A program made the translations under genes and the position numbers. From Verrucomicrobiota bacterium (GTDB taxonomy: Bacteria; Verrucomicrobiota; Verrucomicrobiia; Limisphaerales; J093): a stretch of DNA of 64,000 nucleotides. Below are positions 1 through 38,700 of this stretch, in pieces. Where the stretch lies: positions 268-64,267 of the forward strand of contig JAAYVR010000068.1 of the NCBI GenBank assembly GCA_012517065.1, in the 5' to 3' direction. Under the pieces are notes generated by a model. It ran no database searches. It was not told the DNA's origin and was given only the letters and a program-made list of their open reading frames with translations. Numbering within the stretch: the stretch's first letter is position 1; every line of letters starts with the position of its first letter.

Positions 1-190
1 GGCAATTTGCGGGCCGCGCCCCAATCAGGGGGCAAAACCCAAACTGCGAGCCTGTCACCTTATCCAGCTGGCTCCCAAAAATCGCACTGTTGGGACCGCC
101 TTACTGACGGCCAGAGAAGCCGATACAGAGAAGCTGAGCAAACTCGCGGCGTGAAAATCTTCTCAAACATGAATGATTCTTCAATATAGC
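1..190 (+). repeat. R1 dispersed intergenic repeat, 3' portion (modules iv-v), cut by the window start
   Basis: 1-75 aligns with 4561-4635 and with the reverse complement of 18405-18510 (ggcaaYttgcgggcc...gagcctgtcacYttatcc). 95-190 aligns with the reverse complement of 18290-18385, and both end in caatatag. Confidence 0.8.
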
Positions 191-393
191 AATATACTCT
201 GAGCAGTCTGTGAACCTGGTGTCTTCAAGAAACCAAGGCATATGCGGGCTCTGGGAAACCCGCGCCAAACCTGACAAATGGTGATATGCTCTAAAGTGTG
301 TCAGTAGTCGCGTTGCCGGAATTGGCTCCGGAAGTGAGCACGGGGCGCGGTTTGGAAATCGAGATTCTCTCGTCTGGGCGCGGGTTTTCTTGG

Positions 394-460
394 CCCCGAA
401 ATCTCCCCGCTTGACCGGCCAAAGACAACCAAAGCTTTCATTGCGGTGAGATTTCCGGGC
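394..460. repeat. Hairpin repeat H (imperfect copy)
   Basis: Left arm ccccgaaatctccccgc (394-410) and right arm gcggtgagatttccgggc (443-460) are inverted repeats with 2 mismatches. It belongs to the same family as 26758-26824 and 18191-18253. It lies directly downstream of the stop of the minus-strand gene ending at 491. Confidence 0.7.
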
Positions 461-490
461 TAGTGTTGCAACCAATCCCCGCACCCGGAC

Positions 491-4141: not shown

Positions 4142-4178
4142 TTGCCGTATTATCCCGCCATTGTCAAATCAAGATTAA

Positions 4179-4735
4179 CCCGCACATTTCCCAGCCCGGC
4201 GTAGCCGGAACCAAAGTGGCCTGACAGGCAGCGCCCCGGCTCCAGAGCCCCCTGTGGCTGTCAGCAACGCCAAGCTGGGAAATGTGCCCTGCGACTCCAT
4301 CGCAAGCAAAAGTGCTCTGATTAAGCCCCCACTGGATCGCGCCGCTGATCCCGAGGGTTTCTTACGCGCTGCCGCCGATGCAGTGGGCGTTGGTAGGCGC
4401 CAAGCGCTTGGAGTGCGGCAGCTTGCTGCCGCTTTGTTTCTATGCACAAACAACGTGCCTGGAACCAGATCGGCATGACGTAGAAAACTACGTGTCTGTC
4501 CCCATATCTGCGTCCGGGGCGTTCCTCGGCAGACTTCGGCAACCGCCGATCGGAACAAGGGGCAACTTGCGGGCCACGCCGCAATCAGGGGTCAAAACCC
4601 AAACAACGAGCCTGTCACTTTATCCAACTCACCCCCAAAGGCGGTGCTATTGTGACCAGAGCCCCCTGCGGCTGTCAGCCGCGCCGGTCTGCGAAATATT
4701 TGCTGCGACTCCATCCCTGAACAAAGCACAGCTAG
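4179..4735 (+). repeat. R1 dispersed intergenic repeat, long copy (modules i, ii, T, linker, iv, plus a second partial module ii)
   Basis: It starts at cccgcacatttccc, like the copies at 13606 and (reverse complement) 18901. The core 4377-4510 is about 92% identical, without indels, to 13777-13910. 4561-4635 matches 1-75. There is no coding-like ORF. Confidence 0.85.
4415..4441 (+). terminator. Intrinsic-terminator-like hairpin inside R1 core
   Basis: gcggcag-cttg-ctgccgc (7-bp GC stem, 4-nt loop) is followed by tttgtttct. It is conserved in all three R1 cores. Confidence 0.5.
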
Positions 4736-4840
4736 CGGCAAGTACACGTCAGGCAACATGGCATCGCATGCTTGGCAGGACTGAGGCGGAGCCCAGCTAG
4801 CTATCGAACGGAATCATACGAGGACCGGGACTGATGCGAA

Positions 4841-7662: not shown

Positions 7663-7714
7663 ATATTGTGCCAGGCGCGTTGTGCCGGGCCATCGTTTCA
7701 GCGAGATTTCCGGG

Positions 7715-8596
7715 CTAATGCGCTCGCCGCAGGCCGCGCTCAACCAAGAACCGCACAAAGTCCGCCGGCCGATCTGTCTGATACCCGTCGGCGAGCAAAG
7801 AAATCGTATTATCCCAGAAGGAGGTGTCTTCCTTCGGCCCTTGGATATCGGGCCAAACGGCTAGCCCGCACTTCTGCGCTTCGCGAACCAAAGCCGGTGT
7901 GTAGAGCGCAACCGGCCCATCCAGAATATCTACTTGCAGGCGCGCCTTGAGCGTTGGCAGTGACTCTGCCGATAGATCCTCCGGTTTGGGAGACATCATG
8001 GTCCGCAAGGCCGGTTCGAGTATCTTCCACAGGCGAAGCGCGTCGCGCTGGTCATAAACGACGGTGGAACTTACCATCCGGTAATCTCGCAGCAACTGCA
8101 CCACCTTCGCACGGTCGCCGCTCTTGAAGTCTAGATAAAGCCCGGCTTTGTCCTGCAGCGCGGCCAGCGCCTCGGTTAGGCGCGGCACTTTGGACGGCTG
8201 CAGGTGTGGCCTCTGGCGGTCCACCAAATGAAGACGCGCGATTTCGGCGATGGTCAACTCCTCGACACGCCCATGCCCGTCTGTAGTGCGGTCCACGGTT
8301 GCGTCGTGCATCAGCACCAACTCGCTATCCCGCGTGGCGCGGACATCGAGCTCGATGTAATCCGCTCCTGCATGGTGAATCGCGCGCTTGATGGCTTCGA
8401 TGGAGTTCTCATGAGCTGCCGTGTGATCGCCGCGGTGCGCCACGACGATCGGCCTCGGCGCGGCACGGCCTCGCCCCAAAGATTCAGTCGTGGAACTTCC
8501 GTCATCCTGTTTCCTGTCAAACGCCAAAGCCGCGAAGACAGTTGCGAGCACCGCTGTGGCGGTAGCAATGGTTTCTAGAGGGGATCGCCCGTTCAT
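7715..8596 (-). CDS. Glycerophosphodiester phosphodiesterase (GDPD) family protein
   Basis: 293 aa with an N-terminal TM/signal segment. GDPD motifs are VVAHRGD...ENSIEAIKRAI..GADYIELDVRATRDSELVLMHD. Confidence 0.85.
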   Translation of the reverse strand: MNGRSPLETIATATAVLATVFAALAFDRKQDDGSSTTESLGRGRAAPRPIVVAHRGDHTAAHENSIEAIKRAIHHAGADYIELDVRATRDSELVLMHDATVDRTTDGHGRVEELTIAEIARLHLVDRQRPHLQPSKVPRLTEALAALQDKAGLYLDFKSGDRAKVVQLLRDYRMVSSTVVYDQRDALRLWKILEPALRTMMSPKPEDLSAESLPTLKARLQVDILDGPVALYTPALVREAQKCGLAVWPDIQGPKEDTSFWDNTISLLADGYQTDRPADFVRFLVERGLRRAH

Positions 8597-8670
8597 GCCG
8601 TTGCCAAGCTACACCAGCTCGCCGGCGAAAGTGAACAGTGAAGATAAGGCTGCAGAACAGCCAATCTCGA

Positions 8671-8957
8671 GACCGGTTTCGATAATGCAAATCCAGCGCC
8701 CCACCGTTGACCTGCTGGGGGGCAGAACCACGTGCCTGTCCCCATATCGCATTACCGGCCCCATCAATCCGACGACCGATCTTGCACCGGTTTCGAACAC
8801 CCAGATTCGGGGTGCTACCGTTGACGGGTTGGCGGCGCCGAAACTATGTGTCTGTCCCCATATCGCTCCATTGGATCAATCTTGTTGTGGCGCAGCTTCT
8901 TGACCGCGGATGGCACGGATGACACGGATACGCAAACTATGTGCCTGTCCCCATATG
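8671..8957 (+). repeat. R2 repeat cluster carrying three CCCCATATC boxes
   Basis: ggtttcgat.atgcaaatccagcgccccaccgttgacc...cgtgcctgtccccatatc (boxes ending near 8750, 8866 and 8957). It is related to the 147-bp array and its terminal module at 24960-25113. Confidence 0.75.
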
Positions 8958-12729: not shown

Positions 12730-13605
12730 ATGACTGCGCAACTCTCTCACGATGACAGTGCTGAGGCGAACGGCTGGCAGCCGGTCACGTTTGGAGGCGC
12801 AGCCGCTCTTGCCAGAACAACAGCAGGCCGCGTGCTCCTCGTGGGCATGGTCATAGCGAGCCTGATGGCCGGCGCGGTCGCGCGCACGTTCCACGTAGCA
12901 TGGATGCCGGTCATTGAGGGCGCGATCAAATCTCTTCCGGCGCGCGCCAGCATCGTCGATGGCCGACTCCAGTGGTCAACGAACGCCCCTATGCGGCTGG
13001 CCGACAATTCGTTTCTCGCGCTTGCAGTTGCCGATGAAGGGTCTTCGGGGCTGACCGAGGCCGACCTTGCCATCGAATTTATGGAGAACGGTTGGCGTGC
13101 GACCTCGTTGCTTGGTTCGCTTTTCATCCCTTACCCGCCGGGGCTGACGATTTCACTGGACCCGGTGAGTCTGCTGGCAGGCTGGCTGGCGTGGAAACCG
13201 CATATCGTGGCGGGAGCGTTCATTGTTACGATTGTGTTTGTGTGGCTGATTTGGTTGATGGTTGGCCTTGTTGTGACACCTTTTTTGAGGGTTTACACCG
13301 CAGTATTGCAGCGCGCAGCGACTGCGGGTGACTGTTTGCGTCTTGGGATTGCCTGTTGCATGCCGGGGGAAATTGTCATGGCTGTCGGCGTTCTCGTTTA
13401 TGGCTTGCGCAGGATCAACCTTCCTGAACTGATCGCAGTTGCAGCATTGCACGTCATTGTTGTCGCCTCGTACATGCTTATCACGCCGCTCTGGTTACCA
13501 AGGAGGGAATCGCCTGAAGAGACGACCGAGTTCAAAGGCACCGCTTCCGCCAAAAAGAACCCGTTCGCTGCGCCGCCAACAAACGACAGCGAGGAACGCC
13601 CTTAG
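12730..13605 (+). CDS. Hypothetical integral membrane protein
   Basis: 291 aa with about 5 hydrophobic TM-like segments and no recognised motifs. Confidence 0.55.
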   Translation: MTAQLSHDDSAEANGWQPVTFGGAAALARTTAGRVLLVGMVIASLMAGAVARTFHVAWMPVIEGAIKSLPARASIVDGRLQWSTNAPMRLADNSFLALAVADEGSSGLTEADLAIEFMENGWRATSLLGSLFIPYPPGLTISLDPVSLLAGWLAWKPHIVAGAFIVTIVFVWLIWLMVGLVVTPFLRVYTAVLQRAATAGDCLRLGIACCMPGEIVMAVGVLVYGLRRINLPELIAVAALHVIVVASYMLITPLWLPRRESPEETTEFKGTASAKKNPFAAPPTNDSEERP

Positions 13606-13910
13606 CCCGCATATTCCCCAGCCTGGCGTCGCCGGAACCAAAGTCGCCTGACGGGCAGGCCCCCACCGGCTCTTGCACCACCCGGACCTTCAGTCACGCC
13701 GGGCTGGGAAATATGCCCTGCGACTCCGTCGCAAGGAAGAGCGCGCTGATTCCGAGGTCTCTCACCCGCTGCTGCGGATGCAGTGGGCGTTGGTAGCCGC
13801 GAAGCGCTTGGAGTGCGGCAGCTAGCTGCCGCTTTGTTTCTATGCGCAAACATCGTGCCTGGAACCATATCGGCATGGCGTACAAGACAACGTGTCTGTC
13901 CCCATATCTG
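13606..13910 (+). repeat. R1 dispersed intergenic repeat, short copy (modules i, ii, T)
   Basis: It begins at the nucleotide after the stop codon of 12730-13605 (cccgcatattcccc) and ends at gtctgtccccatatctg. It is collinear with 4179-4510. Confidence 0.85.
13815..13841 (+). terminator. Intrinsic-terminator-like hairpin inside R1 core
   Basis: gcggcag-ctag-ctgccgc followed by tttgtttct. It lies 210 nt downstream of the 12730-13605 stop on the same strand. Confidence 0.5.
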
Positions 13911-14040
13911 CACCGGTGAGATTCTCGAGCCGAGCCATTCAACGCCAAACAACCCGCTTGCGCTCCTCTCAAGAAACGTGAATCATTACGTCCGACCCGC
14001 AGCCGTGCACAGAATGCTGGCGCGGGAAGATTGATAGATT

Positions 14041-16936: not shown

Positions 16937-17161
16937 TGAAACACACGCGCGAGTTTGGGGAACGAGCGAAGCACAAAATGCGACGGGACTTTGAGCGGGG
17001 CTGAGCATGGGGTGGTTTCGCGAGCTACAACATCCAACGCTCAACGTGTAACAACCAGCGGTAGAGGATCAACGCGGAACACTCAACTTGGCGAAGGCGT
17101 GGCTGTACGGCGCAGACTGCTCAGGGTATGAAATATGCGGCCTATGGTCTGTTGTCCGCGG

Positions 17162-18139
17162 TCAGGAGCCTGGCAGACGTTGAACGCGCCAAATGGCCGG
17201 CTTGACGTCGGCGGGATCAATCTCGAGCACGCCAAATCCGCCATCTTTGAGCAACTGTGACCCTGACAGCGACGGGCAGAGTCGAACGTTGAAAGGTCGC
17301 CATTTGCGGGCCATGCGGAGGGCTTCGGTCATGCGGCGGACGGTGTTACCGGCGAACCTCACGGGCGGGATGCCGGACAAGACGCGGCTGGCGCGCAATA
17401 TGAACTGCGTGTGCAAATGACCAATCACCGTGAGTTCGATTTGGGTGATCTTGTCTCGGATTTGTTCATCTGCCGCGAGGAACGGGAGAGCCGTTGGATC
17501 GTGGCAGAACAGGATGATTCGTTGGTCGGCGCGCAACGCAGCGAACGCAGAACGGATGCTGTTCATGTGAATTTCACGGAGGCGCTGCCACGCGGGTCGT
17601 TCTTCAAGCAACGTCTCGGGTTCAAATACAGGGAAAGCAATCAATGACGACACGACGCCGATGAAAACATAACGGCCGACGGTGCTCTGCCAAAACGGTT
17701 CCAGCCCAAGTTCATTGACTGCGCGTTCCCAGCTCGCCAGACGCAGGCCACCGACGCCGCCAAAAAGGCTGACCTTGCCAAGTTCATGGTCGCCAAAAAC
17801 GGGCCTGAACCGCTGGCCAAACCGCGCGCGAATGGCTTCGAGGCAGGCGGCAGCACTTTGAAATGCAGCATGATCGGACAACCCGACAAATGCTGTGTCG
17901 CATGAATAGTCGCCGTTGGCGACGACAAGGTCCGGTTCGCCTGCAGCTTCGATGAAATAACCCAACAGATGGTTATGCGAGAATGGGTCGCCGACCCAGA
18001 TATGGCGTCGATACGCTTTGACAAAAAGACGAAGCAGCGGATTGCCTATCACGCGGGTTTCAAATCCGCCTCGTTCCTGCTCTGCAGGGCACGCGTAATG
18101 AATGTCACTGACAACAACGATTTTGAAACTTGCCTGCAT
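17162..18139 (-). CDS. Metallophosphoesterase (calcineurin-like) family protein
   Basis: Motifs VVVSDIHY, ANGDYSCD, FGDHELG and a later GHLH. 325 aa. Confidence 0.85.
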   Translation of the reverse strand: MQASFKIVVVSDIHYACPAEQERGGFETRVIGNPLLRLFVKAYRRHIWVGDPFSHNHLLGYFIEAAGEPDLVVANGDYSCDTAFVGLSDHAAFQSAAACLEAIRARFGQRFRPVFGDHELGKVSLFGGVGGLRLASWERAVNELGLEPFWQSTVGRYVFIGVVSSLIAFPVFEPETLLEERPAWQRLREIHMNSIRSAFAALRADQRIILFCHDPTALPFLAADEQIRDKITQIELTVIGHLHTQFILRASRVLSGIPPVRFAGNTVRRMTEALRMARKWRPFNVRLCPSLSGSQLLKDGGFGVLEIDPADVKPAIWRVQRLPGS

Positions 18140-18190
18140 TCTTGCAGCCGCGAATTTAGCCTGCTGATTGTGATCAAATCAAACGGCTAA

Positions 18191-18253
18191 ACCGGAAATC
18201 TCACCGCCCCCCGACATTTACCCATGCCTTCATTCCAGTGAGCTTTCCGGGCT
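18191..18253. repeat. Hairpin repeat H (imperfect copy)
   Basis: accggaaatctcaccg ... ccagtgagctttccgggct. The loop ends in cttcattc, as in the 26758-26824 copy. Confidence 0.7.
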
Positions 18254-18289
18254 GGGCAACCTTGGTTCCGGCTACGCCGAGCTGGATTG

Positions 18290-18901
18290 CTATATTGAGA
18301 AGTCATTCATATTCGCGAAGATTTTCACGCTACCACATTGGTCAGTATCTCCGTATCTGCTTCTCTGATCGCCAGTAAGAGGGTCAAAACAGCACGGCCT
18401 TTGGGGTGAGTCGAATACAGTGACAGGCTCGGTGCTTGCGTGCGGACCCAAATAGGGTGACAGGCTCGGTGTTTGAGTTCTGACCCCGGATTGCGGCATG
18501 CCCCTCAGATTGTTCCTTGTTCCAAACGGCGGTAGCCGAAGTCTGTGGAGGAACCCCCTTGCGCCGATATGGGGACAGACACGTTGTTTTCTACGCCGTG
18601 CCGATATGGTTCCAGGCACGTTGTTTGGGCATGAAAAGAAAGCGGCAGCAAGCTGCCGCACTCCAAACGCTTCGCGTCCACCAGCGCCCACTGCAACCAA
18701 ACGCTTCGCGCCCACCAACACCCACTGCAACCGCGGCAGCGCGTTAGAAACCATTGGGATCAACGCGCTCTTCCTTGCGACTGAGTCGCAGGGCATATTT
18801 CCCAGCTCGGCGTGAGTGAAGGTCCGGGGGTGCAAGAGCCGGGGGGCGTTGCCAGTCAGGCGATTTTGGTTCTGGCTACGCCGGGCTGCCAAATATGCGG
18901 G
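18290..18901 (-). repeat. R1 dispersed intergenic repeat, full-length copy in reverse orientation (modules i to v)
   Basis: The reverse complement is collinear with 4179-4635 plus 95-190. Module iv is duplicated (18418-18470) and part of the core is duplicated (18660-18732). Confidence 0.85.
18633..18659 (-). terminator. Intrinsic-terminator-like hairpin inside R1 core (minus strand)
   Basis: On the minus strand, gcggcag-cttg-ctgccgc is followed by tttcttttc. Confidence 0.45.
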
Positions 18902-18991
18902 TGTGTCCGGGGTGGCCGGCGGTTCCTTGGAAGGAGTTCGATGATATTTGCTTGCCGGCCCGAGACTCGCTGCGCACTCTTTTGGGCGGGC

Positions 18992-24557: not shown

Positions 24558-24617
24558 TGAGCGGGCCAGCGACCGGAGGAAAGGCCCTTACTATTCCAGT
24601 TTTGTGCGCGCAAGAAC

Positions 24618-25113
24618 GCCCGCGCTCGTGCCGAAGCGCTGGACAAAGCAACCGCGCCGGGAGCGCGGCCGTCCTCGGCCGGGTCAATCCGATGGCCGAT
24701 CGTGCATCTGTTTCGATCAAGCAAATCTTGAGCCCGAACTTAGACTGGTTGGGTGCGGCGAAGAATTGCCGCGCTCCTGCACGCGGTGGAAAAATCAACG
24801 GCCCCGGGAGCGCGGCCGTCCTCGGCCGCATCAATCCGATGGCCGATCGTGCACCTGTTTCGATCAAGCAAATCTTGGGCCCGAGCTTAGACCGGCTGGG
24901 TGCGGCGAAGAATCGCCGCGCTCCTGCACGCGTTGAAGAAAGCAACGGCCCCGGGAGCGCGGCCGTCCTCAGCCGCATCAATCCGACGACCGACCTGACA
25001 CAGATTACGATCCTGCGAATCCAGCGCCCCACCGTTGACCGGTTGGCAGCAGAACTATGTGCCTGTCCCCATATCTGGCTGCGGGTCGGAAACTACGTGC
25101 CTGTCCTCATATG
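24618..25113 (+). repeat. Tandem array of a 147-bp unit (about 3 units) ending in an R2 terminal module with two CCCCATATC boxes
   Basis: gggagcgcggccgtcctc recurs at 24659, 24806 and 24953 (period 147). Units are about 90% identical. A 10-bp inverted repeat (gccgcgctcc / ggagcgcggc) spans each unit junction. Confidence 0.85.
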
Positions 25114-26757: not shown

Positions 26758-26824
26758 CCCGGAAATCTCACCGTCTGACCAGACCAAGGCACCCAAGACT
26801 TCATTCCGGTGAGATTTCCGGGCT
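26758..26824. repeat. Hairpin repeat H (perfect 16-bp stem)
   Basis: cccggaaatctcaccg (26758-26773) and cggtgagatttccggg (26807-26822) are perfect reverse complements separated by 33 nt. Confidence 0.85.
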
Positions 26825-27198
26825 AAAGGCGGGACTCCAAACAGCCGCGGGCGTAACATCGCCAAGGGTGCGGAACAATCAGTCGCGGGCAGAGTTCCGC
26901 GTTTAATCGGGGCACAAGACCGTTCACCGGGCGGCGCTCATGCTCGGTTACAGGAAAGGGTTCCGCCTAAAGGCGGGACTCTAAACAGCCGCGGGCGTGA
27001 CATCGCCAAGGGTGCGGAACAAACGGTCGCGGTCAGAGTTCCGCGTTTAAGCGGGGCACAAGACCGTTCACCGAGCTGCGCTCATGTTCGGTTACAGGAA
27101 AGGGTTCCGCCTAAAGGCGGGACTCTAAACAGCCGCGGATGTGACATCGCCAAGGGTGCGGAACAAACGGTCGCGGGCAGAGTTCCGCGTTTACGCGG
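26823..27198 (+). repeat. Tandem array of a 144-bp unit (2.6 units)
   Basis: ctaaaggcggg recurs at 26823, 26967 and 27111. Units are about 92% identical. Each unit carries the hairpins gttccgcc-taaa-ggcgggac and gcggaac-N17-gttccgc. Confidence 0.9.
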
Positions 27199-28063: not shown

Positions 28064-31000
28064 TCAGTATCGGACGCGGAAATAACTTTCCTTGCCGGTA
28101 GGAACGACGATGTACGACGTGACGTTGCTGACGACGGGTGTCCATGAACCGCCCAGTGCGGAAGCGCGCAGCAATGTGGCTCTGCCGGGCCATGTGAGTT
28201 CGATGCCAGTTGAAGTGAGTTTGGTCCTGATGAGCTTCTCGCAAACGACGGTGACGTTGAAGTAACACGTGTTTGATTGCCCGGCGAGGCTGGTGGCGAC
28301 GTTGGTGACGGTGGTGGTACCGGCTGGGAAGAAACTGCCGGATGGCGGCGTCGAGACGACTGTGACGTTGGTGTCGTAAGTTGTCCGAGCGGTGACGGTG
28401 AATTCGACGAATGCGCCGCCGTTGGTGGTGCAATTGGCGACGATCTCTTTGGGACAAGTGATTGTGACCGGCGAGGGATCAAGCACGGTAAACAGCACAG
28501 TTGCTTCGCCCTCGTTGCCCGTTGAATCCGTGCTGGTGATTGTAAGCCGGTGGACGCCGGGGCCGAGCAAAGTGCCGGCGGGTGGGTCCTGTGTTGGTTT
28601 GCCGACCTCGGGAGAACAATTGTCGGCTATTTGGACTCCGCCCACAATGCTTGGGACGGGGGCTTGACCGGGGGTGTTGGGGTAATTGTTCACGTTATCG
28701 GTGAATGCAGCGGTGGCTGGGGTGATCTGCGGGCCGGCAACATCGCCGAAGTAGAAGCAGGCGGGATGACCGTAGGAATCATATTCTGCCCAGCCGTACA
28801 CGGAGGCGCCAAAAGGCTGATCGCCGCTGACGATGTGCGAGCCGACTGTGACGGGCACGCGGGCGAATGAGTATGTTGTGCCGGGTATTGCTGAGAAACT
28901 GGCGGCGCCGATTACGACGCCGTCGAGGCGGACGCCGCCGACGGCTGCGGTTGGCGAGATTATCTGGAGATAATTGGTTGGGAAATCGTTTGTGGGGGTC
29001 GAGAAGAGGTAGGCGGTGGTGTAATGGCGAACGGCTTGGACCTGGGACATGAACGGATCGGAATTGACGACGCCGTCGTAGTCGGAGCTATTGGCGAATT
29101 GAGCGACGAGGACGGGTTTGGTGGCTGTGATTCGGGAAGCGAAAGCCAGTTGCATTTGGTGGAACTGGCCACGGTTGAGATTTGTGACGGGGACACCGTT
29201 GACAGCGACAGTCGTGGCATTGTATGCGGCGAGGACTCTGAAGACATCGCCATTTGAGCGCGTTGCCAGTGGCGCGGTGTAGAAGTCGTTGCCCCAAGTA
29301 TTGACCGGCAGGAGTTGTTCGACAAGGTGATCGCAGTACCAGAAGCTGCTGGATGAAACGCTGGTGCAGAGATGGCTTCCGAAGACAGCGATAGGTTTAT
29401 CGGATTTGATCAGCGTGCCTGTGAGGTCGGCCGGTGCTTCGCTTGTGTTGCGGAGCTGATAAGTTTCGCCTGGCTGCATGAGCAGCTCATAGGGGACGTT
29501 CGCGGGGTGCACACCGGTTCCGACTGAGGGAACGATGGTCACGACGGTGTCAGGTTCGGCCGCGGCGATAACGAACTGTGTACCATTAAGAAGCGGCACA
29601 TCAGTGAGAACGTTTCCGTATGCCATGACAACGTAACGCGTGCCAATAACAGACGCGGGGAGTGCCTGGTAGCTGTCGGTGGTGTAACGTGCGTGGTTGA
29701 ACGCAGTGACACCGACGTCTTCCGATGCGATCAAATGGACGCCTTTCTTTGTGATCTCGTCGTTGGAATCGCCGAGTTCAGCATTGCGTGGCAGTTGAAC
29801 AACGGCCAGCCGGCTGGCAGGAATGGCGAAGTTCGTGCTGAATCCAATTGAATCGATGGTTATTTTACAGGTTGTTCCGGGGACACCGTGGACATGGAGG
29901 TTGAGCTGAGGCGGGTTTGCCGGGTCGGGCGCGTAATTACCGGGGAATGCGAGCCAAAACTCGCGGCCGATACAACCGAGATCGCACCGTTCACGATCGG
30001 TAATGACCGAGACCAGGTGATCTTCGACCTCTCCGTCCGGGGCGAGGCCAACGAAGTCGAGGTCAGGCCCTTGCACGGTGAATCGCCAACGTGAGTAGGT
30101 CCTGCCGGTGACAGCGTTTTGGGGGACGCTAAATGTGAGCGTATTGGGTCCCGAGACGAGAGCGGTGCCCGCGAAGACTTTCTCGCCTGGATCAGCCCAT
30201 GAACCGTTTCGGTTGAAATCGATCCATGCGTACAAACGGCCAGCGCGCGATGCGGTTACCTGGACGGTTGCGGTGCGGCCGGAAATAAGGGGACCGGCAA
30301 AGACCACGCCGTCTTCGTCGTCGGCGTCGGGGGTGGGATGTATATCGTCACCATCGGCGGCGGCTGAGGGTTGGCCGTCTGGTTCGAGGTCTATTCGCTG
30401 GCCGAGGTTATGATCGCGCAGGTAAGCGTGACGTGCGCCGTTGTCTTTGAGCAAAGTCGGGTATGGAGCTGGTGCGTCACCGAAGTCGAATGGTTGCTCG
30501 ATATTGACCTTGTAATCCTCGACTTCGCCGTTGCTGGCTTCGCCGACGAAACTTAGTTTTCCCTGCACGCTGATGCGGAACCGGGCGAAGGTGGGGCCGG
30601 CTTTGGCATTTGCGGGGACAGTGAACGCGAGCAGGTTGACGCCAGCGACGACTGATTTCGAAGTGAAGACTTGCTCACCGGCATCGGCCCAACTGCCGTT
30701 GGCGTTGAAGTCGATCCACGCGTCGATCAGAGCGCGGTCAAAACTGCCCGACGCGGTTATTTGGACCTGGGCTTCTTGGCCGGCGTAAAGAGGAGTGACG
30801 AACACGACACCGTCTTCATCATCCGGGAGGTCGGGTGGGTTTTTATCGTCGCCGAGTGCTTCGGGTTCGGGTTGACCGTCTTCTTCGGTATCGAGTTGGG
30901 AACCGAGGCGGGGGCCGGTGGGTGAATGCCGAGCGCCGTTGTCTTTGAGTGTGGTTGGGTACGGAGGTGGAGCGTCGCCGAAGTCGTAGCGCGGGCGAGT

Positions 31001-32614
31001 GATAGTAACGATGTAATCCTCGACCTCGCCGTTGTTTGCTTCACCTGTGAAACTCAGTTTTCCATTTATGCTGATGCGGAAACGGGCGAAGGTGGTGCCG
31101 ATTCTGGCGTTCTCAGGGACTGTGAACGCAAGGAGGTTGACGCCTGCGGTGACTGACTTGGAGGTGAAGATTTGCTCGCCTGGGTCGGCCCAACTGCCAT
31201 TGGCGTTGAAGTCGATCCATGCGTCGATCAGAGCGCGGTCAAAGCTGCCCGACGCGGTTATTTGGACCTGGGCTTCTTGGCCGGCGTAAAGAGGAGTCAC
31301 GAACAAGACACCGTCTTCATCATCCGGGAGGTCGGGTGGGTTTTTATCGTCGCCGAGTGCTTCGGGTTCGGGTTGACCATCTTCTTCGGTATCGAGTTGG
31401 GAACCGAGGCGCGGGCCGGTGGGTGTATGCCGAGCGCCGTTGTCTTTGAGTGTGGTTGGATACGGAGGTGGAGCGTCGCCGAAGTCGTAGCGCGGACGAG
31501 TGACGGTAACCATGTAGTCCTCGACCTCACCGTCTGGCGAATAACCGATAGGCGAAGTGACGCCCTGGTTGCTGAGTCTGAATCTGGCGTAAGTTGTGCC
31601 CGGCGTGGCCGTGGACGGGACGGTGAAGTTTATGACGGTGTTGCCCGCGTAGATGAGATAGTTGGTGCAGATTTGTTCGCCGGCGTCGGTCCAGCTTTGA
31701 TTGAGGTTGAAATCGATCCATGCGTCGAGGTAACCGCGGCCTGGAGCGACAGCGCCCGGGGCGGTGAGATAGACCTGGATCGAGGCGGTTTTTCCGGGCT
31801 CGAGGGCAGTGAGGAACGTGACGCCGTCTTCGTCATCGGCGACGCCGGGAGGATTATTGTCGTCGCCGAGAGCGTTGGCATCTGGTCGGCCGTCGGATTC
31901 GGCATCGATGGCAGTTCCGAGACAGAAGTTATTTGTGATGGCGTGTCTTGCACCATTGTCAGCCAAAGTGGTGGGGTACTTGTAAGGGGCATCGCCGTAA
32001 TCGTAGAGCGGCTGAGAGATTGCGACGGCGTAATCCTCGACCTCACCGTTGCTTGCTTCACCTGTGAAACTCAGTTTCCCACTTATGCTGATGCGGAAAC
32101 GGGCGAAGGTGGTGCCGATTTTGGCGTTCTCAGGGACTGTGAACGAGAGGGTGTTGACGCCGGGGCTGACGGATTTGGAGATGAAGATTTGCTCGCCTGC
32201 GTCGGCCCAACTGCCATTGTCGTTGAAATCGATCCATGCATCGATGAGAGCGCGGTCGAAGTTGCCAGAGGCGGTTATTTGGACTTGAGCTTCTTTGCCG
32301 GGAGAGAGGGGGGTTAGGAAGACGACGCCGTCTTCGTCATTAGCGGCACCGATTGGGTATCTGTCGTCGCCATCGGCTTTAGCGGTTGGTTGGCCGTCTA
32401 GTTCTGAATCGACCAAGGACCCGAGTCTTGGGCCGGCGATAGTATGGTGCGCGCCGTTTTCTTTGAGTGTGGTAGGGTACGGGGATGGGGCGTCACCGAA
32501 GTCGAGCGCCCTGGTTTGCGTGAGTGCGGTGTTGGGCAGGAGCAAAGCGATGCCCGCTGCCAGGAGCGGTGGGAATTGCACTGCCGCCAAAAGGAATGTG
32601 TGCTTAGCTTTCAT
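28064..32614 (-). CDS. Secreted 1516-aa protein: five GEVED domains, an IgGFc-binding-N-terminal-like domain, HYR-like domains and a C-terminal FYRV-type tail
   Basis: Signal peptide MKAKHTFLLAAVQFPPLLAAGIALLL. Five ~167-aa units each begin FGDAP.PYPT and end GEVED[YH]. The middle region reads REFWLAFPGNY... HYR-like segments include ITCPKEIVANC...TCYFNVTVV. The protein ends ESYFRVRY. Confidence 0.8.
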   Translation of the reverse strand: MKAKHTFLLAAVQFPPLLAAGIALLLPNTALTQTRALDFGDAPSPYPTTLKENGAHHTIAGPRLGSLVDSELDGQPTAKADGDDRYPIGAANDEDGVVFLTPLSPGKEAQVQITASGNFDRALIDAWIDFNDNGSWADAGEQIFISKSVSPGVNTLSFTVPENAKIGTTFARFRISISGKLSFTGEASNGEVEDYAVAISQPLYDYGDAPYKYPTTLADNGARHAITNNFCLGTAIDAESDGRPDANALGDDNNPPGVADDEDGVTFLTALEPGKTASIQVYLTAPGAVAPGRGYLDAWIDFNLNQSWTDAGEQICTNYLIYAGNTVINFTVPSTATPGTTYARFRLSNQGVTSPIGYSPDGEVEDYMVTVTRPRYDFGDAPPPYPTTLKDNGARHTPTGPRLGSQLDTEEDGQPEPEALGDDKNPPDLPDDEDGVLFVTPLYAGQEAQVQITASGSFDRALIDAWIDFNANGSWADPGEQIFTSKSVTAGVNLLAFTVPENARIGTTFARFRISINGKLSFTGEANNGEVEDYIVTITRPRYDFGDAPPPYPTTLKDNGARHSPTGPRLGSQLDTEEDGQPEPEALGDDKNPPDLPDDEDGVVFVTPLYAGQEAQVQITASGSFDRALIDAWIDFNANGSWADAGEQVFTSKSVVAGVNLLAFTVPANAKAGPTFARFRISVQGKLSFVGEASNGEVEDYKVNIEQPFDFGDAPAPYPTLLKDNGARHAYLRDHNLGQRIDLEPDGQPSAAADGDDIHPTPDADDEDGVVFAGPLISGRTATVQVTASRAGRLYAWIDFNRNGSWADPGEKVFAGTALVSGPNTLTFSVPQNAVTGRTYSRWRFTVQGPDLDFVGLAPDGEVEDHLVSVITDRERCDLGCIGREFWLAFPGNYAPDPANPPQLNLHVHGVPGTTCKITIDSIGFSTNFAIPASRLAVVQLPRNAELGDSNDEITKKGVHLIASEDVGVTAFNHARYTTDSYQALPASVIGTRYVVMAYGNVLTDVPLLNGTQFVIAAAEPDTVVTIVPSVGTGVHPANVPYELLMQPGETYQLRNTSEAPADLTGTLIKSDKPIAVFGSHLCTSVSSSSFWYCDHLVEQLLPVNTWGNDFYTAPLATRSNGDVFRVLAAYNATTVAVNGVPVTNLNRGQFHQMQLAFASRITATKPVLVAQFANSSDYDGVVNSDPFMSQVQAVRHYTTAYLFSTPTNDFPTNYLQIISPTAAVGGVRLDGVVIGAASFSAIPGTTYSFARVPVTVGSHIVSGDQPFGASVYGWAEYDSYGHPACFYFGDVAGPQITPATAAFTDNVNNYPNTPGQAPVPSIVGGVQIADNCSPEVGKPTQDPPAGTLLGPGVHRLTITSTDSTGNEGEATVLFTVLDPSPVTITCPKEIVANCTTNGGAFVEFTVTARTTYDTNVTVVSTPPSGSFFPAGTTTVTNVATSLAGQSNTCYFNVTVVCEKLIRTKLTSTGIELTWPGRATLLRASALGGSWTPVVSNVTSYIVVPTGKESYFRVRY
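30479..31483 (-). repeat. Intragenic tandem duplication (2 x 501 bp) covering GEVED domains 3 and 4
   Basis: Long identical nucleotide runs at a 501-nt offset (for example 30781-30990 vs 31282-31490). The antisense ORFs 30531-30788 and 31032-31289 are near-identical. The encoded domains are about 90% identical. Confidence 0.85.
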
Positions 32615-32703: not shown

Positions 32704-35700
32704 TTAGAATGAGAACTCGACTGTTGAAGCCACTAACAGGGTGAGTTTCAAGTTGGTAAACAGTTGTTGGGTGGTAATGTGCAGGTTCACTGTCAGACCG
32801 CTGGGTCCGATGCCCAAGAGGGTATCCGCGAAACCTTGAGCGGCATCCTCGCGGAGGGTGTCTTCGCCCTGGTCAAAGCTCAGGTCGAAGATATACGTAT
32901 CGTTGCCGTAGCCACCGAAGAGGCTGTCGTTGCCGCCGTTACCGCGGAGTGTATCGTCGCCGGCGCCGCCGACCAAGATGTCGTTACCGCTACCGCCATA
33001 GAGCGTGTCGTTACCGCCCATTCCGACGAGCGATGCAATGCCCGAGAACATGGTAGCGTCGATGATGTTGTTGGATTTGCCGCCGACCAGGAGAGCTGCG
33101 CGGATGTCGATCAGTGTGTCAGTTTCGGTGCCTATTCTGAGGGATGCGTCACTGAGTTCGAAGTTGGCGTCGCGTGTTTCCCAGATTGTGTCGAGTGTGC
33201 CGCCGTTGCCAATGATCAAGTCGTCGCCAAGTCCGCCGATGAAGATGTTGTTCAGGTCGTTGCCGATGAGGACGTCGGCGTTGCGGGTGCCAATGATATT
33301 CTCGATTGCGTTGTCGTCTGAGAGGGTGAGCTTGAGGTTAGTAGCGTGCACGGTTTGCTGGGTCGTGAGTGAGAGATCGCCGATGACGCCTGTGGAAGTT
33401 GTGGCTGAAAAGTCGAGAGTGTCGAATCCGCCGGCGGCACCGGGCGACTCGAGGATGAAGTCCTCTCCGAGGGCGTCATCCACGTTGAAGCGGTAAGTAT
33501 CATCCCCGCCGTTACCGCTGAGGATATCGTCACCTGCTCCGCCGACGAGGACATCCTTGCCGGAACCGCCGGATAGGAAGTCGTTGCCGCCGAGGCCGAT
33601 CAATGTTGTTTGGCCGGTGAAGGCCGAGGCATCGATGGTGTTGTCGGAGGAGCCGCCGGTGAGGACAGCCTTTTGGATGCTCGAGAGGGTTGTCGAGACA
33701 CCTGCGATGGTGATCTCGGTGTCGGTGAGTGTGAAGTCGGCGTCGGCTGTTTCTACGATTGTGTTTGTACCGCCAGCGCCATGGATGAAGTTCTCGCCGG
33801 GCCCGCCGGTAAACGTATTGTCGAGGTCATTGCCGAGGAGCATGTCGTCGCCCGAGCCACCGATTATGTTTTCGATGTCAGGCAGAAGGAAGTAGAAGTA
33901 CAGCTCATCCGTGGCGGCAGTTTGTGTGGAGCCGAGGGTGCTGAGGTCGATTGTGAGGTCGAGGGCGAACGCTGACAAATCCAACGTATCGATGCCGTTG
34001 TCAGTGCCGTCGGAGTTGCCACCCACAACCACGTTGATATCCATTCCTGCCTGGCCGTCTTGAAGGAAGATGAATAGGTCATCACCGTCGCCGCCTTCGA
34101 GCCAGTTTGCGCCGGGGCCGGGCATGATTATGTCGTCGCCGGCTTTGCCGTAGATGAATGCCGCGCCCGTGAAAGCCGAAGCATCAATGGTGTCATTGTT
34201 GGCGGTGCCAACGATGAATGCTTGTTCGACCGAGTCGAAGAAAATAGAGCTGTCGCTATTAGTGAATGTGACGCTTGAATTAGTGATCGTTGTTGAGCTG
34301 CCGGGTTGTGTGGGGTCTGTTGGGGTTGGGATATTGAGTTTGACGGTGTCGGTGCCGCCAGCAGCTTGGATGATGAGGGAACCGGTGGTCCATCCGCTGA
34401 CGTCGAAACTGTCATCATTAGCGCTGCCGACCATGACAGCCGTTTCGATTCCGATCAGCGTATCGACATCTATGATCGACTTGTCGATTGGGAACGGTAT
34501 TGGATCGTGTTGTGTGATGAAGAGTAGATTATTCTGGAGGACGAAGCTGACCTTCCATGTGACAGCAGAGAGGTCTTCAGCGATCGAGTTGTCGCCGGCA
34601 CCGCCGTCGAGGATGTCGTTGCCGCCGTTGCCGGTGAGGGTATCATTGCCGGGGCCGCCGCGGAGGATGTCTGCGCCTGAACCGCCGATCAGGGTATCAT
34701 TGCTCTCGTTGCCGACGAGGGTAGCTCGACCGGAGAAGTTGGACGCGTCCAAGCTGTTGTCGTTTTGGCCGCCGACTAGAGTTGCGCGTTCGACTGAGGA
34801 CAGAGTCATGGACGCTGAGGTGGCGCCGGTGGTCATTGTCACGGAGGTGTCAGTGAGGATGAAATTGGCATCAGCTTCCCAGACGATGGTGTCGATTCCG
34901 GCCGCGCCATTGATGGAGCCGGTACCTGTCCAGCCTGTGAGGGTGAAAGAGTCTGCTCCGGGACCGCCTGTTAGATTGGCGATTTCGATACTGTCGAGTG
35001 AATCTTCTTCTATTCCGCGTATGAGCTTTTTGTTTGTGAGGGTGAAACTGGCGTTTGCGGATTCGTCAATTCTGTCTGTGCCCTCGCCGCCGAGGAGGGT
35101 ATCATTGCCGGGTCCACCGTCGAGGATATCGTCACCGTTCTTGCCATCGAGCAGGTCCACTCCGGGTCCGCCGTGGAGGATGTTGTTGTTGCCGTTGCCA
35201 CGGATGACGTCGTTTAGCGCGCCGCCGAAGACTTCCTCGATGCCTTCACCGACCAACTTGAGCTGGAGGTTAGCGTTGACAGCTTGGAAAGCGTCGAGAA
35301 TGCCCATGTTAAGGTTGATTTGTTGGCCGGTTGTGGGCGAGAAATCGAGGGTGTCGGTTCCCGGGTCGGACAATAGCTCGACGATGGTTTCACTGCCCCA
35401 AGCGAGGTCAGTATCAAAGACATAAGTTTCGTTTCCGGGGCCGCCTGCGAGCAGGTCATCGCCGGGTCCGCCGATGAGGACATTATCGAGGGCGTTGCCG
35501 TAGAGTTTGTCATTGCCAAAGCCGCCTGTGACGTTTTCGAGGTAATCTTTGAGTATGAGGGTGAGGTTGCCGTTGACGTCCTGAGTTGAGTTGAGCGTTT
35601 CGAGGTGAACGATGAGCTCGGCGACGGTGCCGGTGAAATCGAGAGTATCGGCGCCGCCGTTCCCGGTAACGGTGATGGTATCGAGTGGTGAATCTGCGAG

Positions 35701-38700
35701 GAACTGGAAGGTATCGTTGCTTGAACCGCCAATGTAGGTGTCATTGCCTTTGGTTGCGACGAATGTTACTGGGCGGGAATAACCTGCTGCGTTGATTGTG
35801 TTGGAGCCGTCACCGCCTGTCAGGACGACATTTTCGAGGGAGCTGAGGTGATAAGTCACGCTTGTTGGCAGGTTGATCGAGGCATCTTTTCTGAAACCAT
35901 AGAGGTAGGCGAACACAATCTTTTCGTAATTGGACGCGTCCTTGAGGATCATGTCGGTGTCGCTTTCGACGACGAGCGTGTCGTTGCCGCCTGCGCCATC
36001 GATGAAAGCTGTGGTGGTCCAACCCTTGAGTTCGAAGCGGTTGGCCTGGCTGTCGCCGGTGAGCTTTGCCACTTCGAAGGTATCGTGGAGAATGTGTTCG
36101 TTCAGTGTGACATATGACCCGAGCTGTATTTGTTGATGAACAAGGGAGGTGGGAGACAAGACGATGCCAGCAACACTCCGGACGGAAATGACAGTATCTT
36201 TTCCATGATCTCCGCGAATATCGTCGTCGCCCTGGCCGACGGTGATCTCGTCGTCGCCGAGGCTGCCCATCACGATATCGACTCCATCGCCGCCGGCGAG
36301 GACATCGTCGCCCAACTGGCCGTCGATGTAGTCTGCGCCGATGCCAGCGTCGATGGTGTCATTGCCCGGGCCACCGAAGAGGCGGATGTGACCGAGCTTT
36401 TCTGGGGGTTCGATACCGGTACCGTCTTGGTATTCAGCGACGACTGCGTAACCGGGGATGTTGCCAGAGTCGCCAAGGATGATGTCCCAGTCTAGGCCGC
36501 CCTGGATGTTGTCGTCGTCTGAGATGGTCGGGTTTGCCTCGCCTACGATATACACGGTGGCGGTGTCGTAGGGTCTGCCTGTGGCGTCGTTCAGAGTGAG
36601 GGTGAAATAGCGGAATTCGGTGAATCCAAGGTGGCGATTGAAGACACGTATGCGGAGCGTTTTGACCTGTTCACCGACGTCGAAGACGAGTACAGCGATT
36701 GTGGCTTCGTAATTGCGGGTGAGGTCGGGTGATGATTTGGCGCCGTTTGGGCCTGTGCCGTCCTGGGTCTTAACCACGACGACGCCGGGGACGGAGGTAT
36801 CTTTGCGGGTGACGATGATTTCGACGTAGCCGGGCTTCACTTCTGAGACGCTGTATGTGGCACGGCTGAACTGGTAGGTGCTGCCAAGGGTCAGAGCGCT
36901 GGTCGAGATCACACCGGCGTCTATTGATGTTTTTGTTGGGGACGCTGCGCTGATTGCGATCGCACGGGTGCGATTGACGAATTCGGCGTCACTGTCGGTG
37001 CCGGTGGTATCTTTGTCAGGATCAGGGTCTCCTTGGTTGGGCTCGACGAACGTGTAGCCATCGGGGAGCTCGAATTGGACGACGTATTTTGTCTCTACGG
37101 TTGGATGGTCGGAGTCAACAAAGAGGTTTGTGAACAAGTATTTGCCGTCGGTGGAGAAGACAGCGTTGACGGGGTTACCAACTTCGTCGAGCAGGACCAC
37201 GAGCACGCCTTCAGTGAAGAGAGTGTCACCAAGGTTCTGGACGTTGTTGCCGTTCCCATCGAGCCAGATTTCGCCGCTGATTGCGCCGGGGAACAATTGG
37301 GGTGTGACGGAAAAGATCGGGCCGCTGTCGTAAATTGGGTGGAGCTGAGTTCCGGCGGGCAGGCCATATACCGCGTGGAGGTCGGTGTCTTTGGTGACAG
37401 TTACGACAGTTGCGTTGTAAGCGGTATTGTTGACCGGCATGTGGGAGTCGGTGGCGGTTTGCCAGTGACCACCGATGACGTGGTCATCGCCTGCGCCGGC
37501 GTCGATGGTATCGTTGCCGGGGCCGCCGAAGATTGTGTCATCGGTGCCGCCCCGGCCTACGGCTTTGGCTTTTTCTGGGAGGGTGAAACTGAAGCTGTTC
37601 TTGTAACCGACCGGTGTGAACGGGGATATGCCGACAACACCGTCGAACTTTTCTGCCTGAACCTCATTGTTCGTAGTAGTTACATACGAACCTGAACCGA
37701 AGAGTGGGAACAGAAGGGTTGGCCACAAGTCCTGGAACGGTGATTTGACGGTGGTGCCATCGACAGAGATTGAGACCTGGCCGAGGGCAACGTTGGCGGT
37801 GTACTTGCCGGCATCGATTCCTTTGGCTGTCTTGACGGTGGTCTGTTTATGGATGCCACTCTGCATCCAAGTGATTGTGACGGAGACATCAGCAATGCCG
37901 TTTTCACCGATGTCGAGAAAACCGTTGCCGTTGGTATCATAGAAAACCATTCCTTCAACAGGATACAGGTCATCGTCATAGATTGGGCATGCGGCGATGA
38001 AGTCTTTCTTTGCGAGAGTGGCGCGGACAGGGCTGCTGAGTCGGACGTAGAATTGCTCGGTCAATTCCGGGTCTGCATCGCGTGTGATTATCACCTCGAC
38101 AGTTGTGCTTGTACCGTGCTCTGGGATGGAGGCTGTGCCTGAGGCGAAGGTGTAATCGTCGCCTGTCAAAGCTGTGCCGCGCACAGTGGCCCAGTCAACG
38201 GTCACGCCGCCGGGCGGGGCGGGTTTATCGAGGCTGATTGTGAACTTTGCGGTGGTCGAACCCGGGCCAGTACCTTCGTTGACGCCGTAAACCACTTTGA
38301 AGCGCTTCTCGACGTCGTCGTAGAAGATGCCGATCAGGGGGGCGCGGATGGAAACCACGGGAACGTCGGCATCGTGTATGGTCAGGGTTGCGGTGTCAGG
38401 AGCGGCTCGGACATTGCCGCCGGTTGGGTTGCGGAGGTACAAGAACACTGTTTCGTCGCCCTCGGACAGGTCGTCGGCGTATATTGGTATGCGCACGGCC
38501 TTGGTTGTTTCATTGCCGGCGAAATAGACGAGCTGGCGGAAGAGCGCGCCGTAATCGGCGCCGGCTGTGGCGGTACCGTTTGTGGTGTAGAAGACCGCGA
38601 CTGGTTGTGAGGAACCCGGGGTGCGATGGATTGTGATGTTGGCGTACGCGATGCCCGAGTCTGGTTCTTGCACTTCATAGTCCAGGCTTCCGAAGAAAAC

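Follow-up and report, generated by a model that had tools for sequence, protein, structure and literature searches.

A multicopy, sRNA-like intergenic sequence in uncultured Verrucomicrobiia is probably the left portion of a MITE-like mosaic repeat

The 5' part of the repeat R1, at positions 13606 to 13841 of the window (the whole stretch of 64,000 nucleotides that was analyzed), raises the question of what a short intergenic sequence is when it combines an inverted repeat with a terminator-like hairpin and recurs along the same chromosome. A previous reading, made from the letters of the DNA (referred to here as the sequence-only reading), took it to be a self-contained transcript of ~240 to 270 nt and offered two identities for it, a multicopy sRNA or a mobile terminator cassette. 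Our analysis points, with good though not complete confidence, to a different answer, namely, that this sequence is no gene but the left portion of a mobile repeat that neither encodes a protein nor moves autonomously and is built as a MITE-like mosaic. The family to which it belongs is abundant, intergenic, and restricted to one lineage of uncultured Verrucomicrobiia. As a family R1 is new, and the general kind of element that it represents, the bacterial MITE or REPIN-type repeat, is already known.

Four copies of R1 are present in the window, and at least 50 are present across 51 related loci. In the four-copy alignment, copy 4 is the long form (~715 nt, from 18905 to 18187 on the minus strand), copy 2 is without the last part, copy 3 (the copy that gave rise to the question) consists of only the 5' ~330 nt, and copy 1 corresponds to the 3' part. 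The neighbors of all copies are ordinary chromosomal genes, among them genes for an NPCBM-domain protein, an SPFH protein, FolD, a GFO/IDH/MocA oxidoreductase, a metallophosphoesterase, and a sigma-70 factor. The proteins encoded in the window are 92 to 95% identical to those of the Verrucomicrobiia MAG GCA_049971115.1, and its DNA is 94% identical to one metagenome contig, which places the host among the uncultured Verrucomicrobiia. A 19-mer from R1 matched at least nine contigs of the MAG "Verrucomicrobiota bacterium A05DMB-I-23," several of the matches lying at a contig end, and a gapped pattern running from module ii to the hairpin retrieved 42 contigs from three metagenomes. R1 is, in short, a lineage-wide, high-copy family.

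Nothing in these copies resembles a coding sequence. No frame on either strand is consistently open across copies, the variability by codon phase (0.097, 0.111, and 0.077) exhibits no three-base periodicity, and indels of 28 and 34 nt occur among the copies; the antisense open reading frames (ORFs) at 4175-4558, 13602-13952, and 18498-18815 were rejected as artifacts of high GC. Searches for known RNAs were equally empty: Rfam at gathering thresholds returned no match in the whole 64 kb, the sole match at an E value of ≤10 in the first 20 kb was to a Cyp24a1 IRES model (13.3 bits, against a gathering score of 191) and was taken as chance, and a tRNA/tmRNA scan found none. Of the properties by which MITEs are recognized, R1 has copy number, non-coding nature, terminal repeats (except in its short forms), and insertion polymorphism. 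In the literature searched, MITEs in Verrucomicrobia are not described, apart from one survey of REP elements.

Mapping of consensus modules over all loci indicated that R1 is built of separable units: L with modules i and ii, a hairpin unit of ~146 nt, C1, C2, D, and E. In long R1 their order is L, module i, module ii, hairpin unit, M', M, C1, C2, D, and E, and the whole extends from L to the right arm of E, two boundaries that together form an imperfect inverted repeat (AGCCCGnAnATnTCA, 12/15 positions). Complete elements have the ends AGCCCGCATATTTC and GGTGAGATTTCCGGG, an imperfect terminal inverted repeat (12/15 positions) with YTAR on both sides. The left boundary is sharp, with a left end that reads (Y)TAG followed by CCCGCATATTTC; YTAG is the commonest left flank or terminus among 37 copies, and the sequence upstream of it is unrelated in every copy. 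D is a 72-nt mini-unit that opens with the same left end as R1, has the perfectly inverse termini GCCCGCATATT and AATATGCGGGC, and always precedes E. E, in turn, is a 65-nt palindromic element (CCCGGAAATCTCACCGG, ~30 nt, CCGGTGAGATTTCCGGG) with the terminal inverted repeats CCCGGAAATCTCACCG and CGGTGAGATTTCCGGG, which also stands alone (36 found); in the window, complete copies of it lie at 394-459, 18191-18251, and 26758-26822, and a solo arm lies at 7690-7714. Both the D+E unit and E have terminal inverted repeats of their own, and most of these units are flanked on both sides by YTAR or its transition derivatives.

The joints between units are also conserved. The hairpin unit (GGCNCCATTGGATC...GCTGATCC...hairpin...M) is found in at least nine places where modules i and ii are missing, and its 5' end is still recognizable inside copy 2. 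Units end with a directional motif M, AAC-N-AC-GTGTCTGTCCCCATAT, or with a diverged version of it (M', end of C1), and this 22-nt motif joins units head to tail. M has 8 matches in the window, versus 0.3 expected, and 79 in the loci; the modules that come before it are of at least six kinds, what comes after it is either a module of at least five kinds or unique DNA, and many short forms stop at M without a right terminal repeat. The possibility that the 3' half (M to C1) or the long form is a large structured RNA was considered and rejected, as the M-C1 alignment (26 copies) has a consensus energy of −2.4 kcal/mol and no covariation.

All four copies in the window can be resolved into these parts. 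In copy 3 (plus strand), L (AGCCCGCATATTCC) occupies 13604-13617, and a small hairpin, GCGAC-TCC-GTCGC, is predicted by RNAalifold at 13720-13732; it is conserved, compensatory changes are absent from it, and the search pattern covers part of it. M' (GTGCCTGGAACCATATCGGCA), at 13855-13875, is a duplicate of M that has diverged, M itself (GTGTCTGTCCCCATAT plus CTGC) lies at 13892-13911, and the right arm of an E (CCGGTGAGATTCTCGAGC) at 13913-13930 forms the right boundary of the cluster. M' is typical of the window-type copies; many others are without it and have M directly after the hairpin. Copy 2 (4175-4736, plus strand) starts with TTAA and L and has inverted-repeat arms at 4182-4201 and 4268-4287, the hairpin and T-run described below, M at 4492-4507, part of C1/C2, and an extra module-ii fragment (4657-4736) that ends at CTAG. 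The copy 4 cluster (18187-18905, minus strand) runs from L through arms at 18898-18879 and 18812-18793, a 34-nt tandem duplication, the hairpin, M at 18582-18567, C1, C2, a module-i fragment, and E (18251-18191) to CTAA. Copy 1 (1-463, plus strand) is cut by the window start and retains C1/C2 (1-193), D (194-252), a palindromic unit (~253-393), E (394-459), and CTAG.

Comparisons at orthologous sites establish that R1 is mobile and that its content turns over, the states found being empty, E only, R1 without the hairpin, and R1 with it. At the copy 3 site, the 92% relative L054 has an A-type sequence as in the window (its contig ends inside), and L053 (89%) and L052 (87%) have E directly after the same TTAG. 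In L053 this is a complete E with the derived CGAG variant that also marks the window arm at 13913-13930, and flank homology resumes right after it; the CGAG arm common to both indicates that the window version replaced the left arm and loop of an older E. The copy 4 site is the spacer between the sigma-70 and metallophosphoesterase genes. There, a 69% relative (L058) has an empty spacer of 73 nt, and a 95% relative (L057) has R1 without module ii, the hairpin, M', and most of C1, so that the RNA proposed by the sequence-only reading is dispensable at an orthologous locus. A further pair, L004 (from the MAG) and L012 (from a metagenome), with ~89% identity, differs by 415 nt bounded exactly by two M motifs, which could reflect either insertion at M or deletion between direct repeats. 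No clean pair of empty and filled sites displaying a target-site duplication was found, the only empty site (L058) being too diverged at 69%; L013, although 94% identical to the window, has non-homologous intergenic DNA and was of no use as an empty site. A 3-bp duplication, suggested by TAA or TAG on both sides of E, was rejected, since the flank trinucleotides agree in only about half of the E copies.

The position of copy 3 relative to its upstream gene is informative about how such elements may be accommodated. Copy 3 had been described as starting at the first nucleotide after a stop codon. It does adjoin the TAG of ORF 12730-13605, but its conserved terminus, the (T)TAG at 13602-13605, is itself that stop. 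The same arrangement recurs in the family: the terminal YTAR supplies the TAG or TAA stop of a long upstream ORF in ~10 copies, and in 11 cases, with L and E ends counted together and copy 3 among them, a gene predicted by a codon-usage-based caller has its stop at an element terminus. Orthologues of gene 12730-13605 (87 to 92% identity) are all 291 amino acids long and all end in ...CCTTAG; the gene thus has its native stop, which the element adjoins or overlaps. Contigs from short reads that encode exactly the 12730-13605 protein break off at the stop codon or 3 nt beyond, as would be expected at a repeat boundary.

Elements of the IS630 type target CTAG or TA and duplicate the TA, and the YTAR flanks of R1 match this rule. 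We propose that R1 would be inserted at YTAR by a transposase acting in trans, with duplication of TA, in the manner of IS630/Tc1-mariner-type MITEs. An element that starts with R after the TA would regenerate the stop upon insertion into a TAG or TAA codon, and such insertions would for that reason be tolerated and accumulate; in a GC-rich genome, stop codons would also be among the few TA sites available. Insertion would recreate target sites at the element borders, so that elements could pile up into mosaics. A comparable habit has been reported for GTAG-type REPs, whose terminus likewise supplies the TAG stop of the flanking ORF (PMC3733652).

The hairpin calls for separate consideration. 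Hairpins of the form GCGGCAGC-NN-GCTGCCGC followed by a T-run are located at 4415-4441, 13815-13841, and 18659-18633 (minus strand), just as the sequence-only reading had placed them, and in a ranking of terminator-like sites over the first 20 kb they take the first three places. With seven pairs (six of them GC), a 4-nt loop, and a T-rich tail (UUUGUUUCU), the structure agrees with the sequence definition of an intrinsic terminator; the T-runs read TTTGTTTCT or TTTCTTTTC. In copy 3 the conserved hairpin block spans 13799-13841 on the plus strand and comprises GCGAAGC (13799-13805), a stem formed by 13815-13821 and 13826-13832, the loop CTAG (13822-13825), and the T-run (13833-13841). Because the search pattern fixed the hairpin, conservation was assessed in 19 copies that had not been ascertained through it (copies in the window, copies in MAG loci that M had retrieved, and second copies present on metagenome loci). 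In these, the stem has no substitution at all (0 of 266 site-copies, i.e., 14 positions in 19 copies), compared with a mean divergence of 12.5% elsewhere in the module. The invariant stretch extends into the flanks of the hairpin (TTGGAGT...CTTTG) and is preceded by the conserved GCGAAGC. The loop does vary (CTTG, 63; CTCG, 2; CTAG, 1), and the tail varies in sequence while keeping its T-richness.

A retained stem and T-rich tail around a varying loop had been regarded as what is expected of a functional terminator. The pattern itself is borne out. Selection for stability alone should leave G-U or compensatory variants, and none are seen in the stem, which is more like the outcome of sequence-specific recognition or of selection on master elements. 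Hence, the invariance of the block points to a sequence-specific constraint. Orientation was assessed over 49 independent hairpin sites, 43 of which have an upstream gene on the contig. The hairpin is in sense with respect to that gene in 22 cases and antisense in 21 (p = 1.0). Downstream genes are convergent with the hairpin in 20 cases and co-directional in 11 (p = 0.15), and between genes of the same direction the hairpin is antisense in 8 cases versus sense in 4. Intrinsic termination by a GC hairpin with a T-run would be confined to copies that are read in sense. The placement typical of intrinsic terminators, downstream of a gene and in sense, is thus absent from the family as a whole and found for copy 3 individually, whose hairpin lies in sense 210 nt past the stop codon of gene 12730-13605. 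Given the random orientation, a terminator role under selection is not supported as a general property of R1, and what stands of the proposed mobile terminator cassette is a mobile repeat with a terminator-like hairpin.

It is unlikely, then, that R1 is a domesticated mobile terminator cassette, with copies selected by the host because the hairpin terminates or insulates transcription units. Such a cassette would account for the strength of the three hairpins among the terminator-like sites of the first 20 kb, for an invariant stem beside a tail that changes and stays T-rich, and for a class of copies that begin precisely at a stop codon and have their hairpin in sense ~204 nt further downstream. 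However, it would not predict equal numbers of sense and antisense placements or an excess of antisense ones between same-direction genes, and the reverse strand of the hairpin has no T-run; in addition, an invariant stem with invariant flanks and no compensatory variant fits sequence recognition better than stability, and the hairpin is dispensable at the orthologous copy 4 site. The likeness to an intrinsic terminator (7-bp GC stem, 4-nt loop, T-rich tail, and, in copy 3, sense orientation) is accompanied by clear differences, since the R1 hairpin is part of a randomly oriented repeat and has a stem that is invariant in sequence rather than covarying. As the block is invariant as a sequence and randomly oriented, it is probably kept for the element's own need and not as a service rendered to the host by each copy; that need is probably a recognition site for a protein or for single-stranded DNA (ssDNA), or protection from read-through. 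For copy 3 in particular, we predict that the hairpin probably terminates the transcript of gene 12730-13605, which would give that transcript a structured 3' untranslated region of ~240 nt and would involve no independent sRNA.

With R1 taken as a non-autonomous mobile repeat, the question of what moves it arises. The terminal inverted repeats and YTAR flanks favor a trans-acting DDE transposase of the IS630/Tc1-mariner or IS5 type. Over ~350 kb of short, repeat-selected contigs, no pair of inverted termini enclosing an ORF was found, as would mark an autonomous element; no protein was multicopy among the 202 predicted proteins of these loci, and no gene for a Y1 transposase or RAYT was seen among them. 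Two observations sit uneasily with a MITE moved in this way: the short forms ending at M are left unexplained by simple cut-and-paste, and the total invariance of the hairpin block exceeds the constraint predicted by neutral MITE decay.

A single-strand or site-specific mechanism may still have a place, in view of the directionality of the M junctions, the lack of a right terminal repeat in the short forms, and the invariance of the hairpin block. It is conceivable that GCGAAGC with the hairpin block and M are recognition and joining sites of an undescribed mobility system that adds non-coding units of ~110 to 150 nt head to tail at M, a proposal that we consider rather improbable. The same repeat might be moved by a single-strand mechanism (HUH/Y1, RAYT- or IS200/IS605-like) or a site-specific one in place of a DDE transposase, in which case GCGAAGC and the GC hairpin would be a folded recognition site and M would be the cleavage or joining site for head-to-tail addition. 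The sharing of a directional, non-palindromic 3' motif by units that form head-to-tail chains, the short forms lacking a right terminal repeat, and a hairpin block that is invariant as sequence would all agree with such a mechanism, as would the facts that REP-type elements donate TAG stops and that Opitutus terrae, a Verrucomicrobium, is rich in REPs (PMC3733652). On the other hand, the R1 hairpin has neither GTAG nor CGTC, the tags by which the known REP superfamilies are defined, E and D+E have classical terminal inverted repeats with YTAR on both sides, in a DDE-like manner, a Y1 transposase was not seen in the sampled loci, and the M-bounded indel can equally be a deletion between direct repeats. 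We therefore regard movement of this kind as quite improbable. An IS200/IS605-like interpretation of the short form that ends at M (TTAG at the left only, subterminal hairpins) was likewise set aside as minor, because D+E and E have true terminal repeats.

The remaining feature is the inverted repeat, on which the sRNA proposal partly rested. In copy 2, the 14-mers gcacatttcccagc (4182-4195) and gctgggaaatgtgc (4274-4287) are indeed perfectly complementary, the arms of copy 3 (13609-13622 and 13703-13716) have one mismatch, as had been claimed, and those of copy 4 have two. The inverted repeat is thus present, but 14 bp understates it: the family consensus is 20 bp long (GCATATTTCCCAGCCCGGCG and CGCCGGGCTGGGAAATATGC, ~66 nt apart), and the arms of copy 3 (plus strand) extend over 13609-13628 in module i and 13697-13716 in module ii. 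A 24-mer around the 3' arm has 3 matches versus 0.00 expected by chance. Covariation of the helix was assessed in an alignment (A2) of 37 distinct copies of the R1 5' part, in which the arms occupy columns 8-27 and 103-122, against a control in which the 3' letters were permuted among sequences (500 shuffles). Helix cells are paired in 87.2% of cases, compared with 87.0 ± 0.4% in the shuffles (202 of 500 being as high), the covariation score is 0.095 versus 0.096 in shuffles, and 5 pairs have a double change versus 3.7 expected. At columns 17/113, 16 of the 37 copies have a mismatch. Slid registers of the helix are only 29 to 47% paired, and RNAalifold found no compensatory pair anywhere in the alignment. 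The covariation that a conserved RNA helix should display in a larger alignment, and to which the sequence-only reading had tied its own fate, is absent from the 37 copies. Pairing is a property of the ancestral palindrome, and the two arms change independently. Since mobile copies descend from master copies and then decay, the absence of covariation indicates that single copies are not maintained as RNAs; for the same reason, it does not make the palindrome meaningless for the element.

Nor is there a conserved start for the proposed transcript. As the upstream flanks are unrelated, a promoter would need to be internal, and a scan for sigma-70-type promoters found none conserved at the 5' end of R1 (6 promoter-like sites versus 6.9 in shuffles); one such site in copy 4 results from copy-specific substitutions, and another lies in the flank before copy 2. 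Although no more frequent than chance, these sites might drive transcription of the two copies. The helix and the hairpin, moreover, reside in separable modules, so that the proposed transcript spans at least two independent sub-elements. Single-sequence folds of copies 3 and 2 do form the long helix and the hairpin in both the minimum free energy (MFE) and centroid structures (z = −2.09 and −2.34). An alternative, riboswitch- or attenuator-like pairing of the upstream GCGCTGCCGC with the 5' arm of the hairpin, chosen by RNAalifold, was rejected because the upstream segment is variable or gives way to tandem duplications and exhibits no compensation. A multicopy sRNA gene with its own promoter, producing an RNA of ~240 to 270 nt closed by a 14- to 20-bp helix and ended by an intrinsic terminator, would be in keeping with these folds, with the strongly conserved hairpin and T-run, and with the weak promoter-like sites at or before the 5' ends of copies 2 and 4 (which are at chance level overall), but it is very improbable given a helix without covariation across 37 copies, 16 of which mismatch at one column pair, the want of a conserved promoter within the element, the independent occurrence of helix and hairpin modules, the 95% relative that has neither module ii nor the hairpin at the orthologous copy 4 site, and the lack of any matching Rfam family.

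The MITE-like mosaic that we favor can be placed among known repeat systems. Neisseria NIMEs consist of RS units of 50 to 150 nt that are separated by the 20-bp palindromic dRS3 and are gained or lost between strains. They are the closest analogue of the M-joined chains, in that different units are joined by one short conserved junction repeat; unlike the palindromic dRS3, however, the M of R1 is directional, and the phylum is unrelated with no sequence similarity. Bacterial MITEs such as RUP of Streptococcus pneumoniae and the Correia elements of Neisseria form long hairpins in their transcripts and can bring regulatory signals with them (PMC2229807). R1 resembles them in being short, non-coding, multicopy, and intergenic, with terminal inverted repeats and TA-containing termini or targets, and differs from them in being GC-rich rather than AT-rich, in reaching ~700 nt, in its mosaic structure, and in the many copies without a right terminal repeat. 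REPs, which are defined by a GTAG or CGTC tetranucleotide tag at one end of a palindrome, have been reported in the PVC superphylum (PMC3733652). R1 shares with REPs, REPINs, and BIMEs its palindromic, intergenic, and mosaic character and termini that often supply the TAG stop of the flanking ORF, and its module i/ii pair (20-bp arms, ~66-nt spacer) and E (16-bp arms, ~30-nt spacer) recall REPIN doublets. In contrast to REP/RAYT systems, the palindromes of R1 have no GTAG or CGTC tag, the hairpin being flanked by GGAGT and TTTG, and the termini of R1 and E are YTAG/CTAR on both sides. R1 accordingly has neither the promoter and covariation of an sRNA gene nor the tag of GTAG/CGTC REPs. By analogy, it appears to work like a MITE or a REPIN-type repeat, its unit-plus-junction mosaics being most like the Neisseria NIMEs.

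These results bear on how genomes of this lineage should be read. In annotation, R1 repeats should be masked as mobile or mosaic repeats and not called as sRNA genes, and their presence explains why short-read assemblies of the lineage break exactly at stop codons. For the organisms themselves, a terminus that regenerates stop codons would be a low-cost way for an element to colonize a GC-rich, gene-dense genome, and insertion can be expected to place a strong hairpin and U-run behind genes, as in copy 3, which could rewire 3' ends and insulate neighbors. The invariant hairpin block and the directional junction motif are unexplained by standard MITE models and could point to the moving enzyme. 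If an undescribed system, HUH-like or site-specific, were indeed responsible, it would differ from both GTAG/CGTC REP-RAYT and classical terminal-inverted-repeat MITEs, and it would build intergenic chains and spread terminator-like hairpins through the genomes of these Verrucomicrobiia.

Several unrelated repeat units are arranged head to tail, each terminated by the directional 22-nt motif M, whose consensus reads AAC-N-AC-GTG(T/C)CTGTCCCCATAT. The window holds eight matches to M, against 0.3 expected, and the related loci hold 79. Besides the M sites within the mobile mosaic repeat R1, the motif is found outside it at 8732-8747, 8848-8863, 8941-8956, 25059-25074, and 25097-25112. In these mosaics, M is the point at which units join, or a hub.

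Two intergenic tandem arrays, each of 2.6 copies, have periods of 147 nt (24604-24993) and 144 nt (26823-27198), with 88 to 94% matches. The former belongs to a unit family shared with 8669-8836 and has M motifs at its end, and both the array unit and M are also present at the orthologous position of MAG contig L006. A giant minus-strand ORF (32704-51210; approximately 6,168 aa), flanked by further large repeat-rich ORFs at 28064-32614 and 51380-53863, is packed with repeats of 27-nt period (families D1 to D6) and shows 94% identity to metagenome contig L013.

The 65-nt palindromic element E has independent copies at 394-459, 18191-18251, and 26758-26822, flanked by TTAA/CTAA or CTAG, and a solo arm of E (7690-7714) directly adjoins the end of the minus-strand ORF at 7715-8596. 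A fragment of the mini-element D, gcagactgctcagggtatgaaatatgcggcCTA, lies in reverse orientation at 17106-17143, near the 3' end of the gene at 17162-18139. In copy 1 of R1, an additional palindromic unit, ctgggaaacccgcgcc ... ggcgcgggttttcttgg, occupies 253-393 between the D and E units, with arms of approximately 12 bp and a spacer of approximately 100 nt.

The start of the repeat coincides precisely with an assembly break in two Logan assemblies (SRR15712939/40). The contigs concerned (L055 and L056) encode a protein identical to the window's 291-aa protein, whose stop codon adjoins copy 3, and they end at that stop codon or 3 nt beyond it.

Approximately 20 nt past the conserved GC hairpin of R1 and pointing into the 3' half of the repeat is M', a diverged duplicate of M that reads cTGGaaccanatcgGCa (4459-4475, 13859-13875, and, on the minus strand, 18615-18599). 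M' resembles sigma-54 promoters (TGGCAC-N5-TTGC) in having GG and GC 12 nt apart, a spacing that could have arisen by chance in GC-rich DNA.

Immediately upstream of the hairpin in copy 4 is a 34-nt tandem duplication (18663-18732; 2.1 copies) of TGCAGTGGGCGTTGGTAGGCGCGAAGCGYTTGGA, a unit that has also been duplicated, independently, in L002, L012, and L020. The conserved block ahead of the hairpin contains GCGAAGC (13799-13805 in copy 3, with an equivalent position in all copies), a heptamer that forms a DNA mini-hairpin of unusual stability. The proximity of this mini-hairpin to the hairpin, both of them stable, could hint that the DNA is recognized in single-stranded form.
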